From: an uncultured delta proteobacterium
GTDB lineage: Bacteria > Myxococcota > Myxococcia > Myxococcales > Anaeromyxobacteraceae
DNA: 64,000 nt
Assembly (NCBI GenBank): GCA_963828255.1
Contig: CAWHDZ010000007.1
Span: 192,001-256,000, forward strand
Direction of reading: 5' to 3'
The notes under the pieces were generated by a model. It was not told the DNA's origin and ran no database searches. It saw only the letters and a program-made list of their open reading frames with translations. Position numbers and translations under genes: made by a program. The stretch's first letter is position 1. Every line of letters starts with the position of its first letter. Of this stretch, positions 21,735 through 52,668 are shown piece after piece.

Positions 21735-21756
21735 GTTCCCCCCAGCCTAGTCGTTG

Positions 21757-29198: not shown

Positions 29199-29210
29199 CG
29201 CGCCGAAGCG

Positions 29211-30541: not shown

Positions 30542-30550
30542 GGGTTCTCC

Positions 30551-31762: not shown

Positions 31763-31801
31763 GGTCTGTTCGCTGTAATCGGTCGCGGGCCGGGGTTCAA
31801 G

Positions 31802-34249
31802 AGGGGCGGCGGCGTGCCCTGTGGCCAGCCGCCGCCCCCGGGGATCAGTGACCAGTGCCGTTGCAGCCGCAGTTGTCCTTGACCCAGCCCGTGGTGTTGT
31901 TGGCGGGGTAGGAGACGATGTAGAGCCTGCTGCCCGTGCCGCCCTGCGCGTAGGGTGCGGCGTTGTCCCAGCCGGCGATGGTGCCGCCGACGTTGGCGCT
32001 GGCGCCGGCGATGGCGACGAGGATGCCTGGGCGGGGTCCGCCGTGGGGGATGGCGGCGTGGCAGTTGAAGCAGGCCAGGCGGTGGTCGCCGCGCGAGACG
32101 TGGGTCGCGAAGCGTGAGCTCCCGAAGTTCTGGTTGTGGCAGTTGATGCAGAAGGTGTTGGCGGGCATGCCGGCGCTGGTTCCGACGAGGGTGTTGTTCC
32201 AGGCGGTGTTCGGTCCCTTGAGGATGAACTTCGCGGCCGAGCCGTGCGGGCCGTTGGGATCGGTGGTCGTGTCGGAGGCGTGGCAGTCGGTGCAGGTCAT
32301 GAGGCTGGTTCGCGTCCAGGGGGCCTTGATGTTGCTGGTGGCGCCCAGGTTGCTCCCTGCGCTCGCGAGAACAGGGTGGAAGCTGCCGGCGGTCTCGTTG
32401 TTCGCCCACGTGCCGGCGAAACTCCCCACGTTGGCGGGGTTGAATTCCTTGGCCTGGTCGGTCTCGGCAAAGGCGCCGGAGGGTGACGTCGGAGGAGTTC
32501 CGGTGCCCCAGTAGTACCCGGTGTGGCACTTGAAGCAGAGGGTGGCCTGGAGGTCGGTGCCGGCGGCGATCACCTTCTTGGTGAAGTTGGCCGAGGTCGG
32601 GGCGGTGAAGAAGGCCGGGTTGGAGGTGAGCTGCGCTCCCCAGGCGCCCTGGAGCGCGGGTCCTGAGACGTTGCCGGTGGTCGCGCTGCCGGTGACGCGC
32701 AGGCTTCCGGACGTGGGCTTGGCCTCGTGGGAGTCGTGGCAGTCCATGCAGCTGGCGTGGCGCTGGCCGGCGCCTGCGGTGACGCCCAGCGCGTTGCCGA
32801 AGACGGCGTTGGTGAACTCGGCGGCCGAGTTGTGCCGGGTGTCGGAGTTGGAGGGGTGGCCCGACTGGTTGGCGGTGGTGGCGTGGAGGACCTGGGTCTG
32901 GATGTCCTTGCCGGAGCGGTTGCCCTGGGCGCCGGCGGCGGGAGTCGCCGTCGAGCCGTGGCAGTTGTAGCAGGCGAAGTTGGCCGCCGTTCCGGCCGGG
33001 TTGGTGGTGCCGGCGAGCAGGTTCACGTCGGTGGTGGAGTAGTGGACGGAGACGGTGGTCGTGCTCGCGGGCGTGTTGCCCTCGACGCGGCTGGCGTGGC
33101 ACTTGGTGCAATTGCGGGCGAAGCTGCTGGCGTCGTGGAGCCCGTAGCTCCAGTTGTAGGTCGTCGCCCCCACGGTGTTGGTGGAGAAGTCGTGGGCCGA
33201 GAGGCCGAAGGTCGCGGCGGAGACGGTGATGCCGTTCGCCAGGATGGGCTTCTGGTGGCAGCTCGCGCACAGGCCCACGTTGAGCGTGGTGTCGAAATCG
33301 GTCCGGGCGCGGTTCTGGGTGCCGGTGCCGCCGGTGCCGATGCGCGTGGTCGCCGTGACGGCGCGGGTCGCCTGCGTTGTGGCGTCGAGGAAGACGTTGT
33401 TGGCGTGCCCCGCTCCGGCCGGGCTGGTGACGGTGTGCGGGTGGTCGCCGTGGCACATGGAGATGCAGGTCCGGTTGGCGATCGCCACCGAGGTGTTGAG
33501 ATCGGTTCCGGTCCAGCTGAAGGCGCCGTCCGCCGGGACGTCGCTGCCGAGGGCGTGCCGTGAGACCGGCGCGCCGGTCACCGCCGTCATCCGGTTGAAG
33601 TAGTCGGTGTGGCAGCCGCCGCAGCTCGAGCCGCCGGTGGCGGGCTCGCCGCCGCCGTCGAGCTGGCCGTTGATGTGGAGGCCGCCGGCGACGTTGATGG
33701 TGCCGTCGGTGTTGACCGTGCCGCCGTGGCAGCGGTTGCAGTCGGTGGCGGCCGCGAGGACGCCGGTGTGGCTCACCGTGGGCGGGAAGGCGTGGCAGCT
33801 GCCGCAGGTCGCGGCGGTGCCGGTCCAGGACCAGGTGGCCCCCACCGAGCCGGTGAAGCCCGCCGCCATCGTGGCGCCGTGGCAGTAGGTGGCGCAGGTG
33901 GTGGCGGTGGTGCTGCCGTTGCCCAGCGTGAACGTCGCAGTGAACGCGCCCAGGTTCGCGCCGGTGGCGGTGGCGAAGGTCACGTTCCGCGTGCTGTTCG
34001 AGTGGGCGTTGTTTCCGGCGTTGTTCGGGTGGCACTCGACGCAGGCGACGGGCCGGTACACCGCGCCGGTGGCCACGGGGTTCACGTGGGAGACGTGGAC
34101 TCCGACCCGGACGCCGGTCGTGGCTCCCAGCGAGTCGGCGGGGGGCGCCGACTGCTGGTTCAGGTCCGCGCCGGCCACGCTCACACGGGTCGCCGCGCCG
34201 TGGCAGGACGTGCAGGTGAGCGCGTCGACCTGAACCGACCCGTTCAGGT
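31802..34249. repeat. About 2.45-kb near-identical duplicate of 39491-41938 (offset 7689)
   Basis: Identical shadow ORFs in the track at a 7689 offset; only two silent differences noticed by eye; similarity continues with more differences to about 34900. Confidence 0.9.
31803..31838 (-). terminator. Hairpin after the 60-heme cytochrome
   Basis: GGGGCGGCGGC-N14-GCCGCCGCCCC, 6 nt past the stop codon. Confidence 0.55.
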
Positions 34250-37200
34250 GATTGGCCGGGTTGATGCTGCCGATGGTGTAACCGGTGTGGCAGTTCTGGC
34301 AGGCGGAGTTGGCTGGGTGGGTCCCGCCGGGGGGCGTGCCGTGGCAGGTGCCGCAGTTCGCTGCGGCGACGCCGCCGAGCCAGGACGGGGCGAGAGTGGT
34401 CGCGCCGTTCGTGAAGTTGCCGTGGCAGTAGACGTTGGAGCAGGTGCCCGCGCCGTTCGTCCCCGCGCCGGTGGTGCTGCCCGCGTAGGCGGCGGTGGTG
34501 ATGCCGCCCGTCCTGGCGAGCGTGCCGAAGGCGATGGTGGCGCGAGCTCCGCCGGTGCCGACGCCCGTCGCGTGGGCGACGTCGCCCGCGCCGGGAACCG
34601 TGTGGCACTCGTTGCAGGCGAGCGCGGTGGCGCGCCAGCGCGTGCCAACGAGGTGCGCCGCGTGTGCGCCGACGCCGGCGGCCGTCGCAGCGGTCGCCCC
34701 GGTGGTGTCGGCGGCGGTGGCGTTGAAGCCGGGGGCCGAGGCGTTCGACGTTGCGGCGACCGCGGTCTGGGTGAGATCGCCGTGGCAGAGGGTGCAGCCG
34801 GAGCGGCTCAGGTTGACGGTGCCGTCCACGTGGGTCGCGGCGACCACCGTCGTCGCCGTGTTGCCCGCGCCGTGGCAGGTCGCGCAGGTGGCGTTGGCAG
34901 GGTGGTGCGACGCCGCGTTCAGGGCCGGGGGCGCGCCGTGGCACGAGGTGCAGGCGAGCTTGCCCGAGGTTGCCCAGGAGAGCGCCGCAGCGCTCTGGTT
35001 GCCGCCGGGGAAGTTGCCGTGACAGTAGGTGTTCGAGCAGGTGTGGGCCGTGGGGTTGTAAGCCGTCGGCACCGCGCCCTGGGCTGTCGACAGGCCAGCG
35101 TAGGTCACGCCGATGACGCCGTTCGAGTGCGTACTGGTGGTCGGGAGGACATGGCAGTTGACGCATGCCATCGGCCTCGACAGCGCAGGCGCCGTGGCGC
35201 CCTGGTTCACGTGCGCCAGGTGGACGCCGGCGATCCCGGTGGCCGACGCGACGACCGGAGGCGCGGCCGCCTGGTTCAGGTCCGCACCGGCCACGCTTAC
35301 CCGACCAGCCGCGCCGTGGCAGGAGGTGCAGGACATGCCGTTGACGTCGACCGTGCCGTTGACGTGGGTGGCCGGATCGATGATCGACTGGGTGGCGTTG
35401 CTGTAGTTGCCGTGGCAGTTGCCGCAGGTGGCGAGCGTGGAGCCGGCCGGGTGGGTGCCGCCAGGAGGCGTGCCGTGGCAGGAGGTGCAGGTCGTCGCCG
35501 CGGCGGTCCAGGTGATGGCGCCGGCGCCGACACCGTTCGTGAAGTTGCCGTGGCAGTAAGTGTTGGAGCAGGTGCTGCCGGCGTAGGAGGGGGCCGGGAA
35601 GGTGGTCCCGGTGCCGGTCCGCGCCAGCGTCCCGAAGACGACGTTGGGCGCGCCGTTGGCGTGGAGCGGGGTGGCCGGGATGGCGGCGTTGTGGCACTCG
35701 CTGCAGGCGACCTGCTTGGAGAAGCTTGGGCCGCCGGCGGCGCCGGTGAAGAGGTGCTTCGCGTGGGCGCCGACCTTGGCGCCCGTCGAGAGGTTGGTCG
35801 CATCGACCGGAGGAGAGGACGAGAAGGCGACGGCATTGGCGTCGGCGCCGGTGCGGGCCGGATCGCCGTGGCAGGTGGTGCAGGTCTGGGTGGTGTACTC
35901 GATGACGCCGTTCACGTGAGTCGCCACGTTGACGGCGACGCCGGTGTAGCCCGTGTGGCAGGAGCCGCAATCGGTGCGGTTCGGGTGGAAGCGCCCGGTC
36001 GACGTCGTCGACGGCGGCATCCCGTGGCAGGAGGCGCAGACGAGCGTCGCGGCGGTGGTCCAGGCGGGCGTCACGTTGGTCGCGCCTATGCCGCCGCCGA
36101 GGTTGCCGTGGCAGTAGGTGTTGGAGCAGGTGAGGGCCGTGGTGGAGTAGCTGGCCGTGGCGATGCCGCCGGTCGTCGACAGGTTGGCGAGCCCAACCGT
36201 GCCGGTCGTCGCGACGCCGGTCTTGTGGACCTGGACCGTGGGGACGACGTGGCAGGCGTTGCAGAGGACCGGGCGGGACCGCGTCCCGAGGACGTGGGCC
36301 GCGTGGACGCCGACGCCGCGGCCGGTGATCGCGGTGAGGCCGTAGGTGTCGGGGGAGCCAACGCCCCTGGGTGCGGCGCCGACGTTCGGGTCCTGCGTGC
36401 CGGTGGCGACGAGCGTGCCGCCGTGGCAGGTGGTGCAGGTGAGCGTCGAGGTATTGACGGCGCCGTTCACGTGCAGGCCTCCGGCGACGTTGACCACTCC
36501 GGCCGCGTTGACGGTTCCGCCGTGGCAGCTCGCGCAGGTGGTGAGCGCGGCGGCGTTGTGGTGGTTCGCCGTCGTCGGGGGCGACTTGTGGCAGCTGCCG
36601 CAGTCGGCAGCCGCGCCGTTCCAGGACCAGGAGGCGACGCTGCCGCGGGTGGTCGTCGCGTTCAGGCTCGAGCCGTGGCAGTAGGTGGCGCACGTCGTCT
36701 GCGTCGTCGTCCCGTTGCCCTGGACGAAGGTGGGAGCGAACGCGCCCAGGTTCGCGCCGGTGGCGGTGGCGAACGTCACGTTGACGACGCTGTTCGAGTG
36801 GGCGGCGCTCAGGTTGTTGGGGTGGCACTCGGTACAGGCCACCGGCTTGTAGACCGCGCCGGCTGCGGCAGGATTCACGTGGCCGAGGTGGGTTCCGACC
36901 GCGACGCCCGTCGTCGCGCCCGCCGTGTCGACCGGAGGCGCCGACGCCTGGTTCAGGTCTGCGCCGGCCACGCTCACGCGCGCAGCCGAGCCGTGGCACG
37001 AGGTGCAGGACATGTTCGAGATGTCGATGACGCCGTTCAGGTGGGCCGTTGTGTTGACCGTCGTCGCGGAGTAGCCGGTGTGGCAGGTCTGGCAGGCGGA
37101 GTTGGCCGGGTGGGTCCCGCCGGGAGGCGTGCCGTGGCAGGTGCCGCAGTTCGCTGCGGCGACGCCGCCGAGCCAGGAGGGAGCGAGCGTCGTCGCGCCG

Positions 37201-39284
37201 TTCTGGAAGTTGCCGTGGCAGTAGACGTTGGAGCAGGTGCCCGCGCCGTTCGTCCCGGCGCCGGTGGTGCTGCCCGCGTAGGCGGCGGTGGTGATGCCGC
37301 CGGTCCTGGCGAGCGTGCCGAAGGCGATGGTGGCGCGCGCTCCGCCGGTGCCGACGCCCGTCGCGTGGGCGACGTCGCCCGCGCCGGGCACGGTGTGACA
37401 CTCGCTGCAGGCGAGGGGCGTGCTCCTCCAGCGCGTGCCAACGAGGTGCGCCGCGTGTGCGCCGACCGCGGCGGCCGTCGCAGCGGTGGCGCCGGTGGTG
37501 TCGGCGGCGGTGGCGTTGAAGCCGGGGGCCGAGGCGTTCGACGTTGCGGCGACCGCGGTCTGGGTGAGGTCGCCGTGGCAGAGGGTGCAGCCGGAGCGGC
37601 TCAGGTTGACGGTGCCGTCCACATGGGTGGCAGCGACCACGGTCGTCGCCGTGTTGCCGGCGCCGTGGCAGGTCGCGCAGGTGGCGTTGGCAGGGTGGTG
37701 GCTTGCGGCGGTGAGCGCGGGGGGTGCCCCGTGGCAGGCCGTGCAGGCGAGCTTGCCCGAGGTGGCCCAGGAGAGCGCCGCAGCGCTCTGGTTGCCGCCG
37801 GGGAAGTTGCCGTGACAGTAGGTGTTCGAGCAGGTGTGCGCCGTCGGGTTGTACGCCGTCGGCACCGCGCCCTGGGCTGTCGACAGGCCAGCGTAGGTCA
37901 CGCCGATGACGCCGTTCGAGTGCGTGCTGCTCGTCGGAAGGACATGGCAGTTGACGCATGCCATCGGCCTCGACAGCGCAGGCGCCGTGGCGCCCTGGTT
38001 CACGTGCGCCAGGTGGACGCCGGCGATGCCGGTGGCCGACGCGACGACCGGAGGCGCGGCCGCCTGGTTCAGGTCCGCACCGGCCACGCTTACCCGACCA
38101 GCCGCGCCGTGGCAGGAGGTGCAGGACATGCCGTTGACGTCGACCGTGCCGTTGACGTGGAGTGAAGCATCGACCGAGGTGGAGGTGTAGCCGGTGTGGC
38201 AGGAGGCGCAGTCGGAGTTCTGGGTGTGGGGCGCGGCGGGCGGGACGCCGTGGCAGGTGCCGCAGGAGGTGGCGGCGGGATTGGTCCAGGTGGGGGCATA
38301 GCCCGCGTTGCCGCCGGAGAAGGAGCCGTGGCAGTAGACGTTGGAGCAGGTCGCGCCGTTCCAGGCGGGCGAGGCGCTTCCCGTCCCGGCGATGGTCCCG
38401 AAGGCGATCTCGGCCGGCCCGTTCGAGTGGGAGTTGCTCGTGGGGACGACGTGGCACTCGGTGCAGGAGAGCGAGTTGCCGTCCTTCAGGTGGAGGGCGT
38501 GGGCGCCGACTGCACGGGCGGTGGTGGCGGTCTCGCCCTTCGAGCCCCTGGGCGGCGCGGCGGACAAGCGAGGGTTCAGGGTGGTGTCGGCGCGGGCCGG
38601 ATCGCCGTGGCAGGAGGAGCAGGAGAGGTTCGCGACGTCGACCTTGCCATCGATGTGGGTGGCGAGGTTGACGGTGGTCGCGGTGTAGCCGGTGTGGCAA
38701 CTGCCGCAGTTCGAGGCCGAGCCCACGTCGGGGTGCGGAGCCGCGGGAGGAAGGCCGTGGCAGGTGCCGCAGGACGACGCGCGGGCCTGGGTCCAGACCG
38801 GGGCGTTGGTGGAGGAGCCGCCCACGAAGCCGCCGTGGCAGTAGGAGGCCGAGCAGGAGGAGCCGTTCCAGGTGGGAGCCGCGCCGCCGGTGGTGGCGAG
38901 CGGGCCGAAGGCGAGGTCGACCTTTCCGTTGGCGTGGGCGGTGGTGGTGGGGACGATGTGGCACTCGGAGCAAGCGACCGCCGGGCCGATTGTTCCGCCC
39001 TGGAGGTGGAGTTGGTGGGCGCCGACGGCGCGGTCGGTCGTGGCGGCTTCGCCCTTGGTGCCTTTGGGGGGTGCGGAGGGGAATTGGGGGTTGGTCACCG
39101 TTGCCTGACGCGTCCCGTCGCCGTGGCACAGGGTGCAAGCTTTGCTCTGGCCGGCGGCGCCGCCGTCCACTCCGTTCGACGCTGCCGGACGTGGGTCAGC
39201 ACAACCTGAAAAAATGACGACGGAACATGCCAGGATCAGGGAGTAAGCAGATGAATGAGTGCTGCCTGCCCGCCGTCCCCGCAT
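31845..39284 (-). CDS. Giant multiheme cytochrome lipoprotein, 2479 aa, about 60 heme motifs
   Basis: ATG after AGGAGG; lipobox FSGC; 10 five-heme modules plus a 10-motif C-terminal domain. Confidence 0.92.
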   Translation of the reverse strand: MRGRRAGSTHSSAYSLILACSVVIFSGCADPRPAASNGVDGGAAGQSKACTLCHGDGTRQATVTNPQFPSAPPKGTKGEAATTDRAVGAHQLHLQGGTIGPAVACSECHIVPTTTAHANGKVDLAFGPLATTGGAAPTWNGSSCSASYCHGGFVGGSSTNAPVWTQARASSCGTCHGLPPAAPHPDVGSASNCGSCHTGYTATTVNLATHIDGKVDVANLSCSSCHGDPARADTTLNPRLSAAPPRGSKGETATTARAVGAHALHLKDGNSLSCTECHVVPTSNSHSNGPAEIAFGTIAGTGSASPAWNGATCSNVYCHGSFSGGNAGYAPTWTNPAATSCGTCHGVPPAAPHTQNSDCASCHTGYTSTSVDASLHVNGTVDVNGMSCTSCHGAAGRVSVAGADLNQAAAPPVVASATGIAGVHLAHVNQGATAPALSRPMACVNCHVLPTSSTHSNGVIGVTYAGLSTAQGAVPTAYNPTAHTCSNTYCHGNFPGGNQSAAALSWATSGKLACTACHGAPPALTAASHHPANATCATCHGAGNTATTVVAATHVDGTVNLSRSGCTLCHGDLTQTAVAATSNASAPGFNATAADTTGATAATAAAVGAHAAHLVGTRWRSTPLACSECHTVPGAGDVAHATGVGTGGARATIAFGTLARTGGITTAAYAGSTTGAGTNGAGTCSNVYCHGNFQNGATTLAPSWLGGVAAANCGTCHGTPPGGTHPANSACQTCHTGYSATTVNTTAHLNGVIDISNMSCTSCHGSAARVSVAGADLNQASAPPVDTAGATTGVAVGTHLGHVNPAAAGAVYKPVACTECHPNNLSAAHSNSVVNVTFATATGANLGAFAPTFVQGNGTTTQTTCATYCHGSSLNATTTRGSVASWSWNGAAADCGSCHKSPPTTANHHNAAALTTCASCHGGTVNAAGVVNVAGGLHVNGAVNTSTLTCTTCHGGTLVATGTQDPNVGAAPRGVGSPDTYGLTAITGRGVGVHAAHVLGTRSRPVLCNACHVVPTVQVHKTGVATTGTVGLANLSTTGGIATASYSTTALTCSNTYCHGNLGGGIGATNVTPAWTTAATLVCASCHGMPPSTTSTGRFHPNRTDCGSCHTGYTGVAVNVATHVNGVIEYTTQTCTTCHGDPARTGADANAVAFSSSPPVDATNLSTGAKVGAHAKHLFTGAAGGPSFSKQVACSECHNAAIPATPLHANGAPNVVFGTLARTGTGTTFPAPSYAGSTCSNTYCHGNFTNGVGAGAITWTAAATTCTSCHGTPPGGTHPAGSTLATCGNCHGNYSNATQSIIDPATHVNGTVDVNGMSCTSCHGAAGRVSVAGADLNQAAAPPVVASATGIAGVHLAHVNQGATAPALSRPMACVNCHVLPTTSTHSNGVIGVTYAGLSTAQGAVPTAYNPTAHTCSNTYCHGNFPGGNQSAAALSWATSGKLACTSCHGAPPALNAASHHPANATCATCHGAGNTATTVVAATHVDGTVNLSRSGCTLCHGDLTQTAVAATSNASAPGFNATAADTTGATAATAAGVGAHAAHLVGTRWRATALACNECHTVPGAGDVAHATGVGTGGARATIAFGTLARTGGITTAAYAGSTTGAGTNGAGTCSNVYCHGNFTNGATTLAPSWLGGVAAANCGTCHGTPPGGTHPANSACQNCHTGYTIGSINPANHLNGSVQVDALTCTSCHGAATRVSVAGADLNQQSAPPADSLGATTGVRVGVHVSHVNPVATGAVYRPVACVECHPNNAGNNAHSNSTRNVTFATATGANLGAFTATFTLGNGSTTATTCATYCHGATMAAGFTGSVGATWSWTGTAATCGSCHAFPPTVSHTGVLAAATDCNRCHGGTVNTDGTINVAGGLHINGQLDGGGEPATGGSSCGGCHTDYFNRMTAVTGAPVSRHALGSDVPADGAFSWTGTDLNTSVAIANRTCISMCHGDHPHTVTSPAGAGHANNVFLDATTQATRAVTATTRIGTGGTGTQNRARTDFDTTLNVGLCASCHQKPILANGITVSAATFGLSAHDFSTNTVGATTYNWSYGLHDASSFARNCTKCHASRVEGNTPASTTTVSVHYSTTDVNLLAGTTNPAGTAANFACYNCHGSTATPAAGAQGNRSGKDIQTQVLHATTANQSGHPSNSDTRHNSAAEFTNAVFGNALGVTAGAGQRHASCMDCHDSHEAKPTSGSLRVTGSATTGNVSGPALQGAWGAQLTSNPAFFTAPTSANFTKKVIAAGTDLQATLCFKCHTGYYWGTGTPPTSPSGAFAETDQAKEFNPANVGSFAGTWANNETAGSFHPVLASAGSNLGATSNIKAPWTRTSLMTCTDCHASDTTTDPNGPHGSAAKFILKGPNTAWNNTLVGTSAGMPANTFCINCHNQNFGSSRFATHVSRGDHRLACFNCHAAIPHGGPRPGILVAIAGASANVGGTIAGWDNAAPYAQGGTGSRLYIVSYPANNTTGWVKDNCGCNGTGH

Positions 39285-39533: not shown

Positions 39534-42500
39534 TCAGTGACCAGTGCCGTTGCAGCCGCAGTTGTCCTTGACCCAGCCCGTGGTGTTGTTGGCGGGGTAG
39601 GAGACGATGTAGAGCCTGCTGCCCGTGCCGCCCTGCGCGTAGGGTGCGGCGTTGTCCCAGCCGGCGATGGTGCCGCCGACGTTGGCGCTGGCGCCGGCGA
39701 TGGCGACGAGGATGCCTGGGCGGGGTCCGCCGTGGGGGATGGCGGCGTGGCAGTTGAAGCAGGCCAGGCGGTGGTCGCCGCGCGAGACGTGGGTCGCGAA
39801 GCGTGAGCTCCCGAAGTTCTGGTTGTGGCAGTTGATGCAGAAGGTGTTGGCGGGCATGCCGGCGCTGGTTCCGACGAGGGTGTTGTTCCAGGCGGTGTTC
39901 GGTCCCTTGAGGATGAACTTCGCGGCCGAGCCGTGCGGGCCGTTGGGATCGGTGGTCGTGTCGGAGGCGTGGCAGTCGGTGCAGGTCATGAGGCTGGTTC
40001 GCGTCCAGGGGGCCTTGATGTTGCTGGTGGCGCCCAGGTTGCTCCCTGCGCTCGCGAGAACAGGGTGGAAGCTGCCGGCGGTCTCGTTGTTCGCCCACGT
40101 GCCGGCGAAACTCCCCACGTTGGCGGGGTTGAATTCCTTGGCCTGGTCGGTCTCGGCAAAGGCGCCGGAGGGTGACGTCGGAGGAGTTCCGGTGCCCCAG
40201 TAGTACCCGGTGTGGCACTTGAAGCAGAGGGTGGCCTGGAGGTCAGTGCCGGCGGCGATCACCTTCTTGGTGAAGTTGGCCGAGGTCGGGGCGGTGAAGA
40301 AGGCCGGGTTGGAGGTGAGCTGCGCCCCCCAGGCGCCCTGGAGCGCGGGTCCTGAGACGTTGCCGGTGGTCGCGCTGCCGGTGACGCGCAGGCTTCCGGA
40401 CGTGGGCTTGGCCTCGTGGGAGTCGTGGCAGTCCATGCAGCTGGCGTGGCGCTGGCCGGCGCCTGCGGTGACGCCCAGCGCGTTGCCGAAGACGGCGTTG
40501 GTGAACTCGGCGGCCGAGTTGTGCCGGGTGTCGGAGTTGGAGGGGTGGCCCGACTGGTTGGCGGTGGTGGCGTGGAGGACCTGGGTCTGGATGTCCTTGC
40601 CGGAGCGGTTGCCCTGGGCGCCGGCGGCGGGAGTCGCCGTCGAGCCGTGGCAGTTGTAGCAGGCGAAGTTGGCCGCCGTTCCGGCCGGGTTGGTGGTGCC
40701 GGCGAGCAGGTTCACGTCGGTGGTGGAGTAGTGGACGGAGACGGTGGTCGTGCTCGCGGGCGTGTTGCCCTCGACGCGGCTGGCGTGGCACTTGGTGCAA
40801 TTGCGGGCGAAGCTGCTGGCGTCGTGGAGCCCGTAGCTCCAGTTGTAGGTCGTCGCCCCCACGGTGTTGGTGGAGAAGTCGTGGGCCGAGAGGCCGAAGG
40901 TCGCGGCGGAGACGGTGATGCCGTTCGCCAGGATGGGCTTCTGGTGGCAGCTCGCGCACAGGCCCACGTTGAGCGTGGTGTCGAAATCGGTCCGGGCGCG
41001 GTTCTGGGTGCCGGTGCCGCCGGTGCCGATGCGCGTGGTCGCCGTGACGGCGCGGGTCGCCTGCGTTGTGGCGTCGAGGAAGACGTTGTTGGCGTGCCCC
41101 GCTCCGGCCGGGCTGGTGACGGTGTGCGGGTGGTCGCCGTGGCACATGGAGATGCAGGTCCGGTTGGCGATCGCCACCGAGGTGTTGAGATCGGTTCCGG
41201 TCCAGCTGAAGGCGCCGTCCGCCGGGACGTCGCTGCCGAGGGCGTGCCGTGAGACCGGCGCGCCGGTCACCGCCGTCATCCGGTTGAAGTAGTCGGTGTG
41301 GCAGCCGCCGCAGCTCGAGCCGCCGGTGGCGGGCTCGCCGCCGCCGTCGAGCTGGCCGTTGATGTGGAGGCCGCCGGCGACGTTGATGGTGCCGTCGGTG
41401 TTGACCGTGCCGCCGTGGCAGCGGTTGCAGTCGGTGGCGGCCGCGAGGACGCCGGTGTGGCTCACCGTGGGCGGGAAGGCGTGGCAGCTGCCGCAGGTCG
41501 CGGCGGTGCCGGTCCAGGACCAGGTGGCCCCCACCGAGCCGGTGAAGCCCGCCGCCATCGTGGCGCCGTGGCAGTAGGTGGCGCAGGTGGTGGCGGTGGT
41601 GCTGCCGTTGCCCAGCGTGAACGTCGCAGTGAACGCGCCCAGGTTCGCGCCGGTGGCGGTGGCGAAGGTCACGTTCCGCGTGCTGTTCGAGTGGGCGTTG
41701 TTTCCGGCGTTGTTCGGGTGGCACTCGACGCAGGCGACGGGCCGGTACACCGCGCCGGTGGCCACGGGGTTCACGTGGGAGACGTGGACTCCGACCCGGA
41801 CGCCGGTCGTGGCTCCCAGCGAGTCGGCGGGGGGCGCCGACTGCTGGTTCAGGTCCGCGCCGGCCACGCTCACACGGGTCGCCGCGCCGTGGCAGGACGT
41901 GCAGGTGAGCGCGTCGACCTGAACCGACCCGTTCAGGTGGTTGGCCGGGTTGATGCTGCCGATGGTGTAACCGGTGTGGCAGGCCTCGCAGGCTGGGTTG
42001 GCTGGGTGGGTCCCGCCGGGGGGCGTGCCGTGGCAGGTGCCGCAGTTCGCTGCGGCGACGCCGCCGAGCCAGGACGGGGCGAGAGTGGTCGCGCCGTTCG
42101 TGAAGTTGCCGTGGCAGTAGACGTTGGAGCAGGTGCCCGCGCCGTTCGTCCCCGCGCCGGTGGTGCTGCCCGCGTAGGCGGCGGTGGTGATGCCGCCCGT
42201 CCTGGCGAGCGTGCCGAAGGCGATGGTGGCGCGCGCTCCGCCGGTGCCGACGCCCGTCGCGTGGGCGACGTCGCCCGCGCCGGGAACCGTGTGGCACTCG
42301 TTGCAGGCGAGCGCGGTGGCGCGCCAGCGCGTGCCAACGAGGTGCGCCGCGTGTGCGCCGACGCCGGCGGCCGTCGCAGCGGTCGCCCCGGTGGTGTCGG
42401 CGGCGGTGGCGTTGAAGCCGGGGGCCGAGGCGTTCGACGTTGCGGCGACCGCGGTCTGGGCGAGGTCGCCGTGGCAGAGGGTGCAGCCGGAGCGGCTCAG

Positions 42501-45500
42501 GTTGACGGTGCCGTCCACGTGGGTCGCGGCGACGACGGTGGTGGCCGTGTTGCCCGCGCCGTGGCAGGTCGCGCAGGTGGCGTTGGCAGGGTGGTGGCTC
42601 GCGGCGGTGAGCGCAGGCGGCGCGCCGTGGCAGGAGGTGCAGGAGAGCGTCGCGACCGTCTTCCAGGTGGGCGTGGCGATGGCGCCGGCGCCGCCGGCGA
42701 AGTTGCCGTGACAGTAGGTGTTGGAGCAGGTCCCACCCGCGCCGGCGTAGGTCGAGGTGACGCCGCCGGTGTTGGAGAGGTTGGCGAGCGTGACCGTTCC
42801 GGCCGTCGCGACGCCCGTCTTGTGGACCTGGACCGTCGGGACGACGTGGCAGGCGTTGCAGAGGACCGGGCGGGACCGCGTCCCGAGGACGTGCGACGCG
42901 TGCACGCCGACGCCGTTCGCAGTGGCGGGGGCCGTGAGGCCGTAGGTGTCGGGGGAACCAACGCCCCTGGGGGCCGCGCCGACGTTCGGGTCCTGCGTGC
43001 CGGTGGCGACGAGCGTGCCGCCGTGGCAGGTGACGCAGGTGAGGGTGGAGGTGTTGACGACGCCATTCACGTGCAGTCCGCCGGCGACGTTGACGACTCC
43101 GGCCGCGTTGACGGTTCCGCCGTGGCAACTCGCGCAGGTGGTGATCGCGGCGGCGTTGTGGTGGTTCGCAGTCGTGGGAGGCGACTTGTGGCAGCTGCCG
43201 CAATCGGCGGCGGCGCCGTTCCAGGTCCAACTCGTCACGCTGCCCCGCGTCGTCGTCGCGTTGAGCGAGGAGCCGTGGCAGTAAGTCGCGCACGTCGTCT
43301 GCGTCGTCGTCCCGTTCCCCTGGACGAAGGTGGGAGCGAACGCGCCCAGGTTGGCGCCGGTGGCGGTGGCGAATGTCACGTTCACGACGTTGTTGGAGTG
43401 GGCGTTGCTCGTGTTGTTCGGGTGGCACTCGGTACAGGCCACCGGCTTGTAGACCGCGCCCGCCGCTGCCGGGTTCACGTGGCCGAGGTGCGTGCCGACC
43501 GCGACGCCCGTCGCGGCGCCCGCCGTGTCGACCGGAGGTGCCGCCACCTGGTTCACGTCGGCGCCGGCGACGCTGACGCGACCGCTGGTGCCGTGGCACG
43601 AGGTGCAGGACATGTTGGAGAGGTCGACAGCGCCATCGACGTGACCCGCCGCGCTGATGATGGACTGGGTGGCATTGCTGTAGTTGCCGTGGCAGTTGCC
43701 GCAGGTGGCGAGCGTGGAGCCGGCCGGGTGGGTGCCGCCCGGAGGCGTGCCGTGGCAGGAGGTGCAGGTCGTCGCCGCGGCGGTCCAGGTGATGGCGCCG
43801 GCGCCGACACCGTTCGTGAAGTTGCCGTGGCAGTAAGTGTTGGAGCAGGTGCTGCCGGCGTAGGAGGGGGCCGGGAAGGTGGTCCCGGTGCCGGTCCGCG
43901 CCAGCGTCCCGAAGACGACGTTGGGCGCGCCGTTGGCGTGGAGCGGGGTGGCCGGGATGGCGGCGTTGTGGCACTCGCTGCAGGCGACCTGCTTGGAGAA
44001 GCTTGGGCCGCCGGCGGCGCCGGTGAAGAGGTGCTTCGCGTGGGCGCCGACCTTGGCGCCCGTCGAGAGGTTGGTCGCATCGACCGGAGGAGAGGACGAG
44101 AAGGCGACGGCATTGGCGTCGGCGCCGGTGCGGGCCGGATCGCCGTGGCAGGTGGTGCAGGTCTGGGTGGTGTATTCGATGACGCCGTTCACGTGAGTCG
44201 CCACGTTGACGGCGACACCGGTGTAGCCCGTGTGGCAGGAGCCGCAATCGGTGCGGTTCGGGTGGAAGCGCCCGGTCGACGTCGTCGACGGCGGCATCCC
44301 GTGGCAGGAGGCGCAGACGAGCGTGGCGGCCGCGGTCCAGGCCGGGGTCACGTTGGTCGCGCCTACGCCGCCGCCGAGGTTGCCGTGGCAGTAGGTGTTG
44401 GAGCAGGTGAGGGTGGTGGTGGAGTAGCTGGCCGTGGTGATGCCACCGGTCGTCGACAGGTTGGCGAGCCCAACCGTGCCGGTCGTCGCGACGCCGGTCT
44501 TGTGGACCTGGGCGGTGGGAACGACGTGGCAGGCGTTGCAGAGCACCGGACGGGAGCGGGTGCCGAGGACGTGCGAGGCGTGCACGCCGACGCCGCGGGC
44601 GGTGGTGATGACGGTGCCATAGGTGTCGGGGGAGCCTGCGCCCCTGGGTGCGGCGCCGACGTTCGGGTCCTGCGTGCCGGTGGCGACGAGCGTGCCGCCG
44701 TGGCAGGTGGTGCAGGTGAGCGTCGAGGTATTGACGGCGCCGTTCACGTGCAGGCCTCCGGCGACGTTGACGACTCCGGCCGCGTTGACGGTTCCGCCGT
44801 GGCAGCTCGCGCAGGTGGTGAGCGCCGCGGCGTTGTGGTGGTTGGCGGTGGTCGGAGGCGACTTGTGGCAGCTGCCGCAGTCGGCAGCCGCGCCGTTCCA
44901 GGTCCAGGAGGTCACGCTACCCCGCGTCGTCGTCGCGTTCAGCGAGGAGCCGTGGCAGTAGGTGGCGCAGGTGGTCTGGGTGGTGGTGCCGTTGCCCTGG
45001 ACGAGGGTGGGAGCGAACGCGCCCAGGTTCGCGCCGGTGGCGGTGGCGAACGTCACGTTGACGACGCTGTTCGAGTGGGCGCTGCTCGTGTTGTTCGGAT
45101 GGCACTCGGTACAGGTCACCGGCTTGTAGACCGCGCCCGCCGCTGCCGGGTTCACGTGGCCGAGGTGGGTTCCGACCGCGACGCCTGTCGATGCGCCCGC
45201 CGTGTCGATCGGGGGAGCGGCGGCCTGGTTCAGGTCCGCGCCGGCCACGCTCGCGCGAGCGGCGGTGCCGTGGCAGGAGGTGCAGGTGAGGTTGTCGACG
45301 TCGATGACGCCGTTCAGGTGGTTGGCGCCGACGGTCGTCGCCGTGTAGCCGGTGTGGCAGTTCGCGCAGGTAGCGCCGGCCGGGTGGGTCCCGCCGGGGG
45401 GCGTGCCGTGGCAGGTGCCGCAGTTCGCCGCGGCGACGCCGCCGAGCCAGGACGGGGCGAGAGTGGTCGCGCCGTTCGTGAAGTTGCCGTGGCAGTAGAC

Positions 45501-48500
45501 GTTGGAGCAGGTGCCCGCGCCGTTCGTCCCCGCGCCGGTGGTGCTGCCCGCGTAGGCGGCGGTGGTGATGCCGCCCGTCCTGGCGAGCGTTCCGAAGGCC
45601 ACGACGGCGCGAGCACCGCCGGTGCCGACGCCCGTCGCGTGGGCGACGTCGCCCGCGCCGGGAACCGTATGGCACTCGTTGCAGGCGAGCGGCGTGGAGC
45701 GCCAGCGCGTGCCGTTCAGGTGGGCCGCGTGTGCGCCGACCGCGGCGGCCGTCGCAGCGGTTGCGCCGGTGGTGTCGGCGGCGGTGGCGTTGAAGCCGGG
45801 CGCCGAGGCGCTCGACGTCGCGGCGACCGCGGTCTGGGCGAGATCGCCGTGGCAGAGGGTGCAGCCGGTCCGGCTCAGGTTGACGGTGCCGTCCACATGG
45901 GTGGCAGCGACCACGGTCGTCGCCGTGTTGCCCGCGCCGTGGCAGGTCGCGCAGGTGGCGTTGGCAGGGTGGTGGCTTGCGGCGGTGAGCGCAGGGGGCG
46001 CGCCGTGGCAAGAGGTGCAGGAGAGCGTGGCGGCCGCGGTCCAGGCCGGGGTCACGTTGGTCGCGCCTACGCCGCCGCCGAGGTTGCCGTGGCAGTAGGT
46101 GTTGGAGCAGGTGAGGGTGGTGGTGGAGTAGCTGGCCGTGGTGATGCCACCGGTCGTCGACAGGTTGGCGAGCCCAACCGTGCCGGTCGTCGCGACGCCG
46201 GTCTTGTGGACCTGGGCGGTGGGAACGACGTGGCAGGCGTTGCAGAGCACCGGACGGGAGCGGGTGCCGAGGACGTGCGAGGCGTGCACGCCGACGCCGC
46301 GGGCGGTGGTGAGGACGGTGCCATAGGTGTCGGGGGAGCCTGCGCCCCTGGGTGCGGCGCCGACGTTCGGGTCCTGCGTGCCGGTGGCGACGAGCGTGCC
46401 GCCGTGGCAGGTGGTGCAGGTGAGCGTCGAGGTATTGACGGCGCCGTTCACGTGCAGGCCTCCGGCGACGTTGACGACTCCGGCCGCGGTGACCGTGCCA
46501 CCGTGGCAGCTCGCGCAGGTGGTGAGCGCGGCGGCGTTGTGGTGGTTCGCCGTCGTCGGGAGGCGACTTGTGGCAGCTGCCGCAGTCGGCGGCGACCGCG
46601 CTGTTCCAGGACCAGGAGGCGACGCTGCCGCGGGTGGTCGTCGCGTTGAGCGAGGAGCCGTGGCAGTAGGTGGCGCAGGTGGTCTGGGTGGTGGTGCCGT
46701 TGCCCTGGACGAGGGTGGCCGTGAAGGCCCCCAGGTTCGCGCCGGTGGCGGTGGCGAACGTCACGTTGACGACGCTGTTCGAGTGGGCGCTGCTCGTGTT
46801 GTTCGGATGGCACTCGGAGCAGGCGACCGGCTTGTAGACGGCGCCGGCGGCGGCAGGGTTCACGTGGCCGAGGTGGGTTCCGACGGCGACGCCTGTCGAT
46901 GCGCCCGCCGTGTCGATCGGGGGAGCGGCGGCCTGGTTCAGGTCCGCGCCGGCCACGCTCGCGCGAGCGGCGGTGCCGTGGCAGGAGGTGCAGGTCAGGT
47001 TGTCGACGTCGATGACGCCGTTCAGGTGGGCCGCGGTGTTGACGGTCGTCGCCGTGTAGCCGGTGTGGCAGTTCGCGCAGGTAGCGCCGGCCGGGTGGGT
47101 GCCGCCGGGGGGCGTGCCGTGGCAGGTGCCGCAGTTCGCGGCGGCGACGCCGCCGAGCCAGGACGGGGCGAGCGTGGTCGCGCCGTTCCGGAAGTTGCCG
47201 TGGCAGTAGACGTTGGAGCAGGTGCCCGCGCCGTTCGTCCCGGCGCCGGTGGTGCTGCCCGCGTAGGCGGCGGTGGTGATGCCGCCGGTCCTGGCGAGCG
47301 TTCCGAAGGCCACGACGGATGCGAGCACCGCCGGTGCCGACGCCCGTCGCGTGGGCGACGTCGCCCGCGCCGGGAACCGTGTGGCACTCGTTGCAGGCGA
47401 GCGGCGTGGAGCGCCAGCGCGTGCCGACGAGGTGGGCCGCGTGAGCGCCGACCGCGGCGGCCGTCGCAGCGGTCGCGCCGGTGGTGTCGGCGGCGGTGGC
47501 GTTGAACCCAGGAGCCGAGGCGTTCGAGGTCGCGGCGACGGCGGTCTGGGCGAGGTCGCCGTGGCAGAGCGTGCAGCCGGAGCGGCTCAGGTTCACCGTG
47601 CCGTCCACGTGGGTCGCAGCGACCACGGTGGTGGCGGTGTTGCCGGCGCCGTGGCAGGTGGCGCAGGTGGCGTTGGCAGGGTGGTGGCTTGCGGCGGTGA
47701 GCGCGGGAGGCGCCCCGTGGCAGGCGGTGCAGGAGAGCGTGGCGACCGTCTTCCAGGTGGGCGTGGCGATGGCGCCGGCGCCGCCGGCGAAGTTGCCATG
47801 GCAATAGGTGTTCGAGCAGGTCCCGCCCGCACCCGCGTAGGTCGAGGTGACGCCGCCGGTGTTGGAGAGGTTGGCGAGCGCGACCGCTCCGGCCGTCGCG
47901 ACGCCCGTCTTGTGGACCTGGACCGTGGGAACGACGTGGCAGGCGTTGCAGAGCACCGGACGGGAGCGGGTGCCGAGGACGTGCGCCGCGTGGACGCCGA
48001 CGCCGTTCGCAGTGGCCGGCGCGGTGAGGCCGTAGGTGTCGGGGGAGCCAACGCCCCTGGGGGCGGCGCCGACGTTCGGGTCCTGGGCTCCGGTGGCGAC
48101 GAGCGCGCCTCCGTGGCAGGTGGTGCAGGTGAGGGTCGAGGTATTGACGGCGCCGTTCACGTGCAGGCCGCCGGCGACGTTGACGACTCCGGCCGCGTTG
48201 ACGGTTCCGCCGTGGCAGCTCGCGCAGGTGGTGATCGCGGCGGCGTTGTGGTGGTTCGCCGTCGTCGGAGGCGACTTGTGGCAGCTGCCGCAGTCGGCGG
48301 CGACCGCGCTGTTCCAGGACCAGGAGGCGACGCTGCCGCGGGTGGTCGTCGCGTTCAGCGAGGAGCCGTGGCAGTAGGTGGCGCAGGTGGTCTGGGTGGT
48401 GGTGCCGTTGCCCTGGACGAGGGTGGCCGTGAAGGCCCCCAGGTTCGCGCCGGTGGCGGTGGCGAACGTCACGTTGACGACGTTGTTCGAGTGGGCGTTG

Positions 48501-51500
48501 CTCGTGTTGTTCGGATGGCACTCGGAGCAGGCGACCGGCTTGTAGACGGCGCCGGCGGCGGCCGGGTTCACGTGGCCGAGGTGGGTTCCGACGGCGACGC
48601 CTGTCGATGCGCCAGCGGTGTCGATCGGGGGAGCGGCGGCCTGGTTCAGGTCGGCACCGGCCACGCTCGCGCGAGCGGCGGTGCCGTGGCAGGAGGTGCA
48701 GGTGAGGTTGTCGACGTCGATGACGCCGTTCAGGTGGGCCGCGGTGTTGACCGTCGTCGCCGTGTAGCCGGTGTGGCAGTTCGCGCAGGTAGCGCCGGCC
48801 GGGTGGGTGCCGCCGGGGGGCGTGCCGTGGCAGGTGCCGCAGTTCGCGGCGGCGACGCCGCCGAGCCAGGACGGGGCGAGCGTGGTCGCGCCGTTCCGGA
48901 AGTTGCCGTGGCAGTAGACGTTGGAGCAGGTGCCGGCGCCGTTGTCCCGGCGCCGGTGGTGCTGCCCGCGTAGGCGGCGGTGGTGATGCCGCCGGTCCGG
49001 GCGAGCGTGCCGAAGGCGATGATGGCGCGCGCACCGCCGGTGCCGACGCCCGTCGCGTGGGCGACGTCGCCCGCGCCGGGAACCGTGTGGCACTCGTTGC
49101 AGGCGAGCGGCGTGGAGCGCCAGCGCGTGCCGTCAGGTGGGCCGCGTGTGCGCCGACCGCGGCGGCCGTCGCAGCGGTTGCGCCGGTGGTGTCGGCGGCG
49201 GTGGCGTTGAAGCCGGGCGCCGAGGCGTTCGACGTCGCGGCGACGGCGGTCTGGGCGAGATCGCCGTGGCAGAGGGTGCAGCCGGAGCGGCTCAGGTTGA
49301 CGGTGCCGTCCACATGGGTCGCGGCGACCACGGTCGTCGCCGTGTTGCCCGCGCCGTGGCAGGTCGCGCAGGTGGCGTTGGCTGGGTGGTGCGACGCCGC
49401 GTTCAGGGCAGGGGGCGCGCCGTGGCAAGAGGTGCAGGAGAGCGTGGCGGCCGCGGTCCAGGCCGGGGTCACGTTGGTCGCGCCTACGCCGCCGCCGAGG
49501 TTGCCGTGGCAGTAGGTGTTGGAGCAGGTGAGGGTGGTGGTGGAGTAGCTGGCCGTGGTGATGCCACCGGTCGTCGACAGGTTGGCGAGCCCAACCGTGC
49601 CGGTCGTCGCGACGCCGGTCTTGTGGACCTGGGCGGTGGGAACGACGTGGCAGGCGTTGCAGAGCACCGGACGGGAGCGGGTGCCGAGGACGTGAGCCGC
49701 GTGGACGCCGACGCCGCGGGCGGTGGTGAGGACGGTGCCGTAGGTGTCGGGGGAGCCTGCGCCCCTGGGCGCGGCGCCGACGTTCGGGTCCTGCGTGCCG
49801 GTGGCGACGAGCGTGCCGCCGTGGCAGGTGACGCAGGTGAGCGTCGAGGTATCGACGGCGCCGTTCACGTGCAGGCCGCCGGCGACGTTGACCACTCCGG
49901 CCGCGTTGACGGTTCCGCCGTGGCAGCTCGCGCAGGTGGTGAGCGCGGCGGCGTTGTGGTGGTTGGCGGTGGTCGGAGGCGACTTGTGGCAACTGCCGCA
50001 GTCGGCGGCGACCAGGCTGTTCCAGGACCAGGAGGCGACGCTGCCGCGGGTGGTCGTCGCGTTCAGCGAGGAGCCGTGGCAGTAGGTGGCGCAGGTGGTC
50101 TGGGTGGTGGTGCCGTTGCCCTGGACGAGGGTGGCCGTGAAGGCCCCCAGGTTCGCGCCGGTGGCCGTGGCGAAGGTGACGTTCACCGTGCTGTTCGAGT
50201 GGCTGATGTTGCCGGCGTTGTTGGTGTGGCACTCGGTGCAGGCGACCGGCTTGTAGACGGCGCCGGCGGCAGCAGGGTTCACGTGGCCGAGGTGGGTTCC
50301 GACGGCGACGCCCGTCGAGGCGCCCGCCGTGTCGATCGGGGGGGCGGCGGCCTGGTTCAGGTCTGCGCCGGCCACGCTCACGCGGCCGGTGGCGCCGTGG
50401 CACGACGTGCAGGTCATGTTGGCGACGTCGATAACCCCATTGATGTGGGTGGTCAGGTTGACCGTCGTCGCGGTGTAACCCGTGTGGCAACTCGCGCAGG
50501 CGGCGTTGGCCGGGTGCGTCCCGCCGGGGGGCGTGCCGTGGCAGGTGCCGCAGGCGTTCGCGGCCGGCGCCGTCCAGCTCGGGACGTAGGTGGTCGCGCC
50601 GTTCCGGAAGTTGCCGTGGCAGTAGCTCGAGGCGCAGCCCGAGCCGTTCCAGGCTGGGCTCACGTTGCCCGTCTTCGCGAGCGCGCCGAACACCACCTCG
50701 GCCACCCCGTTCGAGTGGGCGTTGCTCAGGACGACGGAATGGCACTCGCCGCAGGCCGTGCCGGAGGAGGTCGCGCTGGCCTGGAGGTGGCGCAGGTGAG
50801 CGCCGACTCCGCGGGCGGTGGTGGCCGTGTTGCCCTTGGCGTCCACCGGGGGCGCGGCGGCCAGCTGGGGGTTCAGCGTGCTGCCGGCGCGGGCCGCGTC
50901 GCCGTGGCAGGAGGTGCAGGAGAGGTTGACCTCGACCAGGCCGTTCACGTGGGTGGCCGGATCGACCGCCGTGCGCGTGGAGCCAGGGTGGCAGCTGCCG
51001 CAGCTGGCCGTGGCGGCGACGAACGGGTGGGGCGCCGGAGGCGGGCTGCCGTGGCAGCTTCCGCAGGTCACTTCCACGCTCCCGCCGGTCCAGAGCGGGC
51101 GGTTGTGGGTGGCTCCACCGAGGGTGGCGCCATGGCAATAGTTGGTGCAGGTGAGGCCGGTCGGGTCGAAGGCGGGGGCGGCGCCGCCGGTCGAGGCGAG
51201 AGGGCCCCAGGCGAGGTCGAGGGCGCCGCTGGGGTGCGTGCCCTGGCCAGGAGTGGCGTGGCATTCGGTGCAGGCCATGGCGATGCGCAGCGAGCCCGCG
51301 TTCAGGTGGGCCTGGTGGGCGCCGACGCCGGCGGAGGTGGTGGCGCTGCTGCCCGTGGTGTCCTTGGGCGGCGCGGCGGCGAGATCGGGATTGAGCGCGG
51401 TGGCGACCCGGGTCGCGTCGCCGTGGCAGGAGGAGCAGGAAATCGCGGCGACGTCCACGCTGCCGTTCACGTGGGTCGACGCGTTGACGGAGGTCGAGGT

Positions 51501-52598
51501 GTAGCCGGTGTGGCACGAGGCGCAGTCGGAGCTCTGGGTGTGGGGCGCGGAGGGCGGGACGCCGTGGCAGGTGCCGCAGCTCGAGGCGGCCGGGTTGGTC
51601 CAGGTCGGCGTGTAGCCGGCGTTGCCGCCGGGGAAGGCGCCGTGGCAGTAGACGTTGGAGCAGGTCGCGCCGCTCCAGGACGGCGTGGCTCCGCCGGTCC
51701 CGGCGACGGTCCCGAACGCGATCTCGACCGACCCGTTCGAGTGGGTGTTGCTGGTGGGGACGGCGTGGCACTCGGTGCAGGCGGTGGCGTTGCCGTCCTT
51801 GAGGTGGAGGGCGTGCGCGCCCACCGCGCGGGTGGTCGTGGCGGACTCGCCCTTCGAGCCCGTGGGCGGCGCGGCGGAGTTGCGGGGGTTGAGCGTCGTG
51901 TCGGCGCGGGCCGGATCGCCGTGGCAGGAGGTGCAGGTCATGTTCGCGACGTCCACCTTGCCGTCCACGTGGGTGGCGAGGTTCACCGTGGTCGCGGTGT
52001 AGCCGGTGTGGCAGGTTCCGCAGTTGGAGGCCACGCCCACGTCCGGGTGGGGAGCGGCGGGAGGCAGGCCATGGCAGGTGCCGCAGGAGGTTGCGCGGGC
52101 CTGGGTCCAGACGGGCGCATTGGTCGAGGAGCCCCCGGCGAAGCCGCCGTGGCAGTAGGACGCCGAGCAGGAGGAGCCGTTCCAGGCGGGGACCGCTCCG
52201 CCGGTGGTTGCGAGCGTTCCGAAAGCGAGGTCCACCATTCCGTTGGCGTGGGCAGCGGTCGTGGGGACGGTGTGGCACTCGGCGCAAGCGACCGCCGGGC
52301 CGATCGTTCCGCCCTGGAGGTGGAGCTGGTGGGCCCCCACGGCGCGGGCAGTCACGTCACTTTCGCCTCTGGTTCCTTTGGGGGGAGCCGACGGGAGCAT
52401 CGGGTTCGTGGAGGTCGCCACGCGGGTCGCGTCACCGTGGCAAAGGGTGCAAGCTTTGCTTCCGCCGCCGGCCCCTCCGTCCGTCCCCTTCGAGGCCATT
52501 GGGCGTGGGTCGGAGCAACCTGAAACGAAGGCTACGCAAACCCCTAGAATCAGGGCGCTAACGAAGCCATGGGTGCCACTTGACCGCAATCCCGACAT
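39534..52598 (-). CDS. Giant multiheme cytochrome lipoprotein, about 4354 aa and 110 heme motifs, interrupted by four single-base indels (about 49133, 48944, 47320, 46560) with net shift zero
   Basis: ATG after GGAGG; lipobox VSGC. Each indel is visible against intact copies of the same repeat (e.g. gccgt[t]cagg, gtt[c]gtccc). First and last segments are in the same frame; 20 modules plus a 10-motif C-terminal domain. Confidence 0.82.
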
Positions 52599-52668
52599 GA
52601 ACCCTCCAGAGCCCAAAAACCTACACCGCAGGAATTGCGCTTCCTTTTGTGTAGGATGATGTACCGTG

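Follow-up and report, generated by a model that had tools for sequence, protein, structure and literature searches.

A predicted lipoprotein cytochrome with 110 heme-binding motifs, split by four single-base indels in an Anaeromyxobacteraceae-related genome assembly

Cytochromes with around one hundred or more hemes on one polypeptide are known from genome mining. In the available text of the reports concerned, a 113-heme protein of Methanoperedens Mn-2 is called the largest identified (PMC7327174), a protein with 112 motifs is given for a Paludibaculum metagenome-assembled genome (MAG), with more than 100 in some Bacteroidota (PMC11495043), and up to 75 motifs are given for Desulfuromonadia (PMC11492766). 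The accessible part of a further survey reports more than 100 motifs per polypeptide from genome mining and names HmcA, with 16 hemes, as the largest solved structure (bioRxiv 10.1101/2025.05.29.656830). Electron export or capacitor-like roles have been proposed for the 112- and 113-heme giants, again in the text available (PMC11495043, PMC7327174). Here we describe a gene of comparable size, termed gene A, in a 64,000-nucleotide (nt) stretch of the uncultured delta proteobacterium assembly GCA_963828255.1 (contig CAWHDZ010000007.1, positions 192,001 to 256,000; hereafter the window). The region from 52598 to 39534 on the minus strand of the window is a single gene for a predicted lipoprotein cytochrome with 110 heme-binding motifs, and its reading frame is interrupted by four single-base insertions or deletions (indels). 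It resembles the 112/113-heme giants in its motif count per polypeptide and, as far as the available text of their reports goes, in being known from genome mining only; they belong to other phyla and to another domain of life, and the comparison is one of motif counts.

Better characterised cytochromes share other traits with gene A. GSU1996 is the dodecaheme multidomain c7-type 'nanowire' cytochrome of Geobacter. Proteins of the HmcA/GSU1996 type are, like gene A, single polypeptides of repeated small heme-packing modules, but they hold 12-16 motifs rather than 110, are built on a three- or four-heme rather than a five-heme unit, and are soluble and periplasmic, whereas gene A is predicted to be lipid-anchored. 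MtrC, OmcA and MtrF of Shewanella are also lipoprotein multiheme cytochromes, and gene A has a weak match to their profile PF22113; it is unlike them in that its PF22113 and TIGR03508 scores stay under the cut-offs and that no porin was matched among the ORFs scanned in the gene cluster around it. The filament cytochromes OmcS, OmcE and OmcZ share with gene A the role proposed for it, long-range electron transfer through stacked hemes, an analogy drawn with OmcS in the first-pass annotation of this DNA; they are polymers of subunits with 4-8 hemes, whereas the length of gene A would come from one chain.

Heme-attachment motifs were mapped frame by frame on the minus strand, since at 70-74% GC (guanine plus cytosine) spurious long open reading frames (ORFs) are plentiful in this region. 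On this map, minus-strand CXXCH motifs occupy 14-53 kb and no other part of the window. Within gene A they pass from frame 2 (52451-49280) to frame 1 (49101) and frame 0 (48841-47395), then to frame 1 (47133-46584) and back to frame 2 (46517-39761). When the four breaks are bridged with an X, the result is a protein of 4,351 amino acids (aa) with no internal stops and 110 CX2-4CH motifs, comprising 89 CXXCH, eight CX3CH and 13 CX4CH. Its parts are the following.

39534..52598, minus strand: gene A, giant CxxxxCH/CxxCH-family multiheme cytochrome lipoprotein (from frame bridging, motifs and profile hidden Markov models, HMMs)
52602..52607, minus strand: Shine-Dalgarno-like GGAGGG, 3 nt upstream of the ATG at 52598 (read directly)
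52518..52598, minus strand: 27-residue signal peptide that closes with the lipobox V-S-G, Cys28 coming next (codon 52517-52515); lipidation predicted
41355..52493, minus strand: 20 tandem five-heme modules of ~170-195 aa each (from motif spacing and alignments)
39537..41354, minus strand: C-terminal domain with 10 heme motifs at a wider spacing of 26-81 aa (from motif spacing)

The start codon is the ATG at 52598 and the N-terminus reads MSGLRSSGTHGFVSALILGVCVAFVSGC; the signal peptide runs into ...ALILGVCVAFVSGC, with the invariant cysteine of the lipobox at Cys28. The lipobox consensus is [LVI][ASTVI][GAS]C. The mature protein is computed to have 4,324 aa, a polypeptide mass of ~421 kDa, or ~489 kDa with 110 hemes, and one heme for every 39 residues. 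Scans for promoters and terminators at both gene ends gave no signal exceeding that of shuffled sequences. The first-pass annotation had joined five ORF fragments at these coordinates into one hidden gene of about 4,350 aa and about 110 hemes, with a lipobox, 20 five-heme modules and a 10-heme end domain, and had expected automatic annotation to fragment it; frames and alignments bear out this architecture and the fragmentation, and reproduce the signs of the four indels (-1, -1, +1 and +1, net 0).

The motifs of each module follow the order CXXCH, CXXCH, CX3-4CH, CXXCH, CXXCH. The third is CX4CH in 13 of the 20 modules and CX3CH in the other seven, and the next CXXCH lies 27-31 residues further on. 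Modules 5-20 are arranged as 1.7-kb super-repeats of three modules each, with a mutual DNA identity of 82-85%; these were mapped by BLAST, the 500-nt period limit of Tandem Repeats Finder being shorter than the 1.7-kb unit. The last 588 aa of the protein are 100% identical to the end of that encoded by a neighbouring paralog, gene B. In alignments of 80 three-module segments and 141 single modules, drawn from the window and its relatives, the Cys and His of the motifs are invariant, and each module contains five further His outside the motifs that are invariant or at least 90% conserved. These would supply one distal ligand for each heme and so complete the capacity for bis-His ligation, and the mature protein has 238 His in all, against 220 required. 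Both the CXnCH motifs and matching candidate ligands expected of a multiheme cytochrome are therefore present. All conserved Cys, His, Gly, Trp and Pro are kept in 20 of 20 modules, including modules 7-12, which lie between the breaks.

Profile searches place the gene in a named family. TIGR01904 matched the two large pieces of gene A at 208.1 and 236.2 bits (cut-off 27), in six stretches of each, and PF09698 (GSu_C4xC__C2xCH) matched gene A pieces with E values of 6e-17 and 4e-24. The hallmark of the family, a CX4CH followed by CXXCH about 30 residues on, recurs along the protein, with a CX3CH variant in seven of the 20 modules. Judged by these matches, gene A is a member of the CxxxxCH/CxxCH domain c-type cytochromes (TIGR01904/PF09698). 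Further Pfam matches were to PF14522, to Cytochrome_C7 and, weakly, to PF22113 (MtrC/MtrF domain II/IV). An MtrC/OmcA-type decaheme end domain was considered and rejected, as single modules score 19.7-20.7 bits against a PF22113 cut-off of 30 (the scores of whole pieces sum weak repeats) and TIGR03508 reaches 39-47 bits where the cut-off is 192. Searched by itself, the C-terminal 588-aa segment had no PF22113 match at E <= 0.01 and no phmmer match to PDB sequences. The ESM Atlas yielded only generic Paired_CXXCH and c7 clusters, with recognition under the trusted level.

A search of public proteins, limited to lengths of 4,096-5,000 aa, found four relatives: P0001 (4,096 aa, 116 motifs), P0002 (4,309 aa, 126 motifs; 'MAG: CxxxxCH/CxxCH domain-containing protein [Deltaproteobacteria bacterium]' at NCBI), P0003 (4,161 aa, 60 motifs) and P0004 (4,490 aa, 90 motifs). 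P0001 and P0002 are closest in character, with the same HMM family, the CX4CH...CXXCH repeat, a lipobox-type N-terminus and the same size class, and they align with gene A at 34% identity across 74-75% of a 2,340-aa query. Gene A differs from these public giants in coming from an Anaeromyxobacteraceae-related genome, in being frameshifted in its assembly, and in the marked regularity of its 20 five-heme modules, with their young super-repeats of 1.7 kb. No solved structure of a CxxxxCH/CxxCH family member was present among the PDB sequence matches. Comparison with the largest cytochromes does not support a special standing for the heme count of gene A, with 116 and 126 motifs in public family members and 112 and 113 in print, as given in the available text of those reports. 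Gene A is thus not a record for heme count and is a large member of a known, uncharacterised family.

The four indels were placed by tblastn with an intact repeat unit and by a MAFFT alignment of four 1.7-kb copies, in which all other gaps are multiples of three, a ragged non-homologous 3' end excepted.

49130..49140 (~49135), minus strand: indel 1, one base fewer than in the five paralogous copies, frame 2 to 1
48940..48948 (~48944), minus strand: indel 2, one base missing, frame 1 to 0
47315..47323 (~47319), minus strand: indel 3, one extra base and a substitution, frame 0 to 1
46555..46563 (~46560), minus strand: indel 4, one extra base, frame 1 to 2

Their contexts are CACCT|GACGG, GGGAC|AACGG, CTCGCATCCGTC and CGCCTCCCGAC; on the plus strand, indel 3 is AT in the window and C in the copies, and indel 4 is GGG in the window and GG in the copies. 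In five of five paralogous copies within the genome, all four sites are in the in-frame state. The shifts sum to zero and the corrected frames are open, as they would be if the cell itself bridged the frame changes, through programmed ribosomal frameshifting, slippage during transcription or phase variation. Such bridging is extremely improbable here. None of the four site contexts, read by eye, contains a slippery heptamer or long homopolymer, a net shift of zero arises by chance in six of 16 sign combinations, and we know of no precedent for a single gene with four separate recoding events, some of each sign. The uncorrected frame continues for ~2.1 kb to a stop at 47022, ahead of the +1 sites; this argues against recoding, and on the same ground a compensated-frameshift reading, in which the later indels restore the frame of the earlier ones, was rejected.

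Taken together, our preferred interpretation is a single gene for a 110-motif lipoprotein with four indels that are likely consensus errors of the assembly, to which we assign a probability of roughly 0.65. On the indels taken by themselves, an origin in the assembly consensus is probable, and real mutations less so. The gene can be called hidden in so far as its frames are split, but the cause most likely lies in assembly errors and not in biology. If the indels were real, gene A would be a recently inactivated pseudogene, with the intact gene B carrying the function, and its product would be at most 1,858 aa long, with 1,154 aa of cytochrome (31 motifs) followed by out-of-frame sequence up to the stop at 47022. 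We regard this as rather unlikely. Past the four indels there is no decay; all 110 motifs and the ligands are intact, and the corrected frames have no stop.

The state of the rest of the assembly also speaks against inactivation, as frameshifts occur there in genes of housekeeping type. A whole-genome screen for change-points in third-codon-position GC (GC3) gave 109 raw candidate clusters, which a strand-aware filter reduced to 55 events, three of them inside the window; it recovered three of the five known window events. Outside the cytochrome cluster 24 events had d >= 150, and 20 of these 24 were tested with Pfam. In 10 of these 20 tests one Pfam domain, or one order of domains, carries on from one side of the junction to the other, which indicates that the source assembly holds frameshifts in ordinary genes. 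The genes broken are Peptidase_M28, a sigma-54 activator, an AI-2E transporter, HsdM, HsdR, Zn-ADH, CinA, a Proton_antipo_M subunit, Lhr and RlmL (loci L022, L023, L027, L029, L030, L031, L033, L034, L036 and L038, on contigs C3, C5, C15, C21, C25, C29 and C32 of G000). At least one of the remaining 10 junctions (pyrR-pyrB) is between two genes, and the others are ambiguous or without a match. Runs of 5-7 G or C were present at four of the eight genome-wide junctions inspected. A fifth frameshift, in a neighbouring cytochrome gene, further supports an error-prone assembly.

Comparison with relatives again tells against a pseudogene, as these genes have noisy frames in Nanopore-only assemblies and are intact in the relatives assembled in many contigs. 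In the few-contig relatives G001 and G013, orthologs showed at most 11 and at most 23 motif frame switches, counts that are upper bounds because single-motif runs may arise by chance, and rpoB was intact. The orthologs L041 and L042, from genomes with MFD...bin labels, are fragmented likewise. Assemblies of the MFD catalogue are, in the available text of its report, described as Nanopore-only with a single round of Medaka polishing (PMC12313526). Many-contig relatives have intact orthologous ORFs of 2,721-3,902 aa with 61-94 motifs (3,902 aa with 94 motifs, 2,932 with 65, 2,721 with 61, 2,846 with 66, and at least 2,950 with 75). The longest is an intact lipoprotein cytochrome gene of the same-genus relative G011 (L017, 2369-14074, minus strand, contig C28; ~3,870 aa from the likely start). 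Two cytochrome ORFs with 19 motifs each flank it. A report on mutation rates of Geobacter cytochromes makes no mention of frameshifts or pseudogenes (PMC12977616).

Public sequence data were available as short Logan contigs of at most 465 nt, and contigs of four public runs were compared with the window at 90% likeness. Seven of the 12 indels among the matches listed, out of 18 in all, fall on the four sites, and all seven restore the frame. In X1 and X3 all contigs covering sites 2 and 3 carry the restoring indel, at depths of 55.5/55.5, 79.3/79.3, 10.9/10.9 and 15.5/15.5, and are thus in frame, contrary to what a pseudogene would predict; in X5 the restoring indel makes up 8.46 of a depth of 8.46 at site 2. 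X20 covers site 3 at a depth of 3.03 with no indel listed there. All of these values hold among the matches listed. The shares of the public runs were 0.12-0.44, and no habitat was named from them.

Several points weigh against assembly error, and some of them favour inactivation. The indels are known from the consensus sequence. Three of the four gene A indels lie outside homopolymers, unlike four of the eight genome-wide junctions, and this counts in favour of real mutations. The genes rpoB, rpoC and dnaE are intact in this genome, so that indels are several-fold denser in the cytochrome cluster (five in ~38 kb) than genome-wide; this density would equally fit relaxed selection on a redundant paralog, and the intact gene B, with a 3' end 98.55% identical, adjoins gene A. 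The public contigs are also open to another reading. Close to each site (within 60 nt) the paralogs share 96.7-98.4% of their bases, and restoring contigs of at most 465 nt may have come from another copy or another strain. At 98% likeness the matches listed contained no indel, restoring or otherwise, though no listed piece bridges any of the sites or spans the whole region; loose ends at or near 48944 (X2), 47310 (X1 and X3) and 46557 (X4) prove neither way. At site 4, part of the X1 and X3 depth is without listed deletions, and the state seen in the window may exist there.

The length of the array was considered separately. Reads from repeats or from co-occurring strains could have been merged, leaving the count of 1.7-kb super-repeats, or the pairing of genes A and B in tandem, inflated or chimeric; the true gene would then be nearer to the 2,000-2,950 aa usual in the family. 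The genome is a draft in 40 contigs with an estimated contamination of 6.61%, gene A equals gene B exactly plus ten modules, orthologs in most relatives are 2,000-2,950 aa long, and the region shows many alleles and joints among the public contigs. The repeat copies, however, differ by ~15-18% in DNA, so that each is distinct and none is an artefact of collapsed or duplicated reads. In addition, the same-genus relative has its intact 3,902-aa ORF, the public family members of 4,096-4,490 aa are intact, and tandem large cytochrome genes are also found on the contig L045 of a relative. An inflated array is therefore quite unlikely, more so than inactivation, and we retain the interpretation of a full-length gene interrupted by consensus errors.

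Gene A heads a 38-kb minus-strand island with six lipoprotein multiheme cytochrome genes, the other main components of which are given below.

31845..39284, minus strand: gene B, 2,479-aa lipoprotein cytochrome, intact, 60 motifs
29729..31840, minus strand: ResB-like (30554-31840) and CcsA/CcsB-like (29729-30550) genes, System II maturation
15033..29230, minus strand: remainder of the island, four lipoprotein multiheme cytochrome genes and a peroxidase
~29.2-27.0, 26.9-25.1, 24.9-21.9 and 21.7-16.5 kb, minus strand: the four cytochrome genes
21865-24890, minus strand: lipoprotein multiheme cytochrome gene containing the fifth frameshift (break 23904-23929)
16232-15033, minus strand: di-heme cytochrome c peroxidase

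Gene B has ten modules and the same end domain as gene A. Its last 3.2 kb (31802-35042) are 98.55% identical to gene A at 39491-42731, compared with 82-85% between the module arrays and 81% at the 5' ends, a pattern suggesting that the end domain was recently duplicated or gene-converted. At the fifth frameshift the frame changes directly after a ...CHAMPP motif, and paralogs are at most 83% alike locally. The genome encodes four CcsA-type paralogs, and the ResB/CcsA pair of the island may serve specifically as the lyase for CX3CH and CX4CH sites. No outer-membrane porin family was matched by the island ORFs that were scanned. The island holds 50 of the 57 TIGR01904 domain matches of the genome, and it may be located in a variable region.

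The source genome is a 4.31-Mb draft, and its named relatives are Anaeromyxobacteraceae or 'uncultured delta proteobacterium' MAGs. The other seven TIGR01904 matches form a second locus on contig C27 of G000 (~183.4-188.2 kb), with open frames of 1,873 and 1,153 aa. Within the window, the segment beside the island (55966-63859) has mobile-element-like genes (Replic_Relax at 55966-57219 and an AbiEi antitoxin at 61829-62542) and a low-GC stretch (0.575 at 58-60 kb) in which two DUF1254/DUF1214 genes are located. The opposite flank of the island has an HNH/DUF222 gene (13518-14591) together with a PolB-like exonuclease (12320-13687). A plus-strand ORF at 8835-10982 combines topoisomerase VI B transducer and GHKL ATPase domains, a combination unusual in bacteria.

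The gene A precursor would be exported by Sec and lipidated at Cys28, and the System II lyase, whose genes lie 8 kb downstream, would attach its hemes. Once mature, the protein would stay tethered to a membrane, and electrons could hop along, or be stored on, its closely packed bis-His hemes. The likely acceptors would be extracellular, for example humics or Fe(III) minerals, in line with proposals for other surface cytochromes of Anaeromyxobacter and Geobacter.

Structure prediction was performed on the three-module unit and on a single module. The AlphaFold2 model of the three-module unit (573 aa, 80-row alignment) was poor, with a predicted local distance difference test (pLDDT) of 57.4 and a predicted template modelling score (pTM) of 0.34, and a Foldseek search with it returned one row, at E 9.6. 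The model of the single module (180 aa, 141 rows) was good (pLDDT 82, pTM 0.70); it gave no Foldseek rows and no match among 48,161 chains at Z >= 2 with VIA-align. The module profile matched HmcA at E 1.7e-5 over its whole length (profile 6-175 on chain residues 74-239), MtrF at E 4.2e-5, and NrfA, NrfB and NrfH weakly, a likeness in sequence profile that fits ordinary multiheme packing. Chains of OmcS, OmcE or OmcZ were not named among 6 and 23 PDB sequence matches, and the gene A modules did not show the sequence or fold likeness to these proteins that would mark them as filament subunits.

The first-pass annotation had also raised the idea of a membrane-tethered molecular wire, tens of nanometres long and made of one polypeptide. 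Put in full, the idea is that the gene is intact in the cell, its product is a lipid-anchored protein of ~489 kDa, and the 20 pentaheme modules align as one continuous 110-heme chain. We consider this conjunction possible and on balance doubtful. The heme spacing in OmcS is ~0.8 nm per heme. If the idea is true, a 110-heme chain at OmcS-like spacing would span many tens of nanometres, and such a nanowire would be built by gene-internal duplication and not by polymerisation. The 82-85% identical super-repeats would then show that it was lengthened recently and stepwise.

Gene A founds no new class of cytochrome, and the wire idea is a hypothesis for structural work to take up. In long-read metagenome assemblies, indels interrupt GC-rich repetitive cytochrome genes far more frequently than they do ordinary ones, and surveys of hemes per protein need to bridge frames or they will undercount the largest cytochromes or overlook them altogether. 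With this gene, relatives of Anaeromyxobacter join the organisms that encode cytochromes of ~110 hemes, beside the archaeal and acidobacterial record holders. The locus also displays how such genes grow, gene A being its neighbour gene B with ten modules added in young 1.7-kb repeats.

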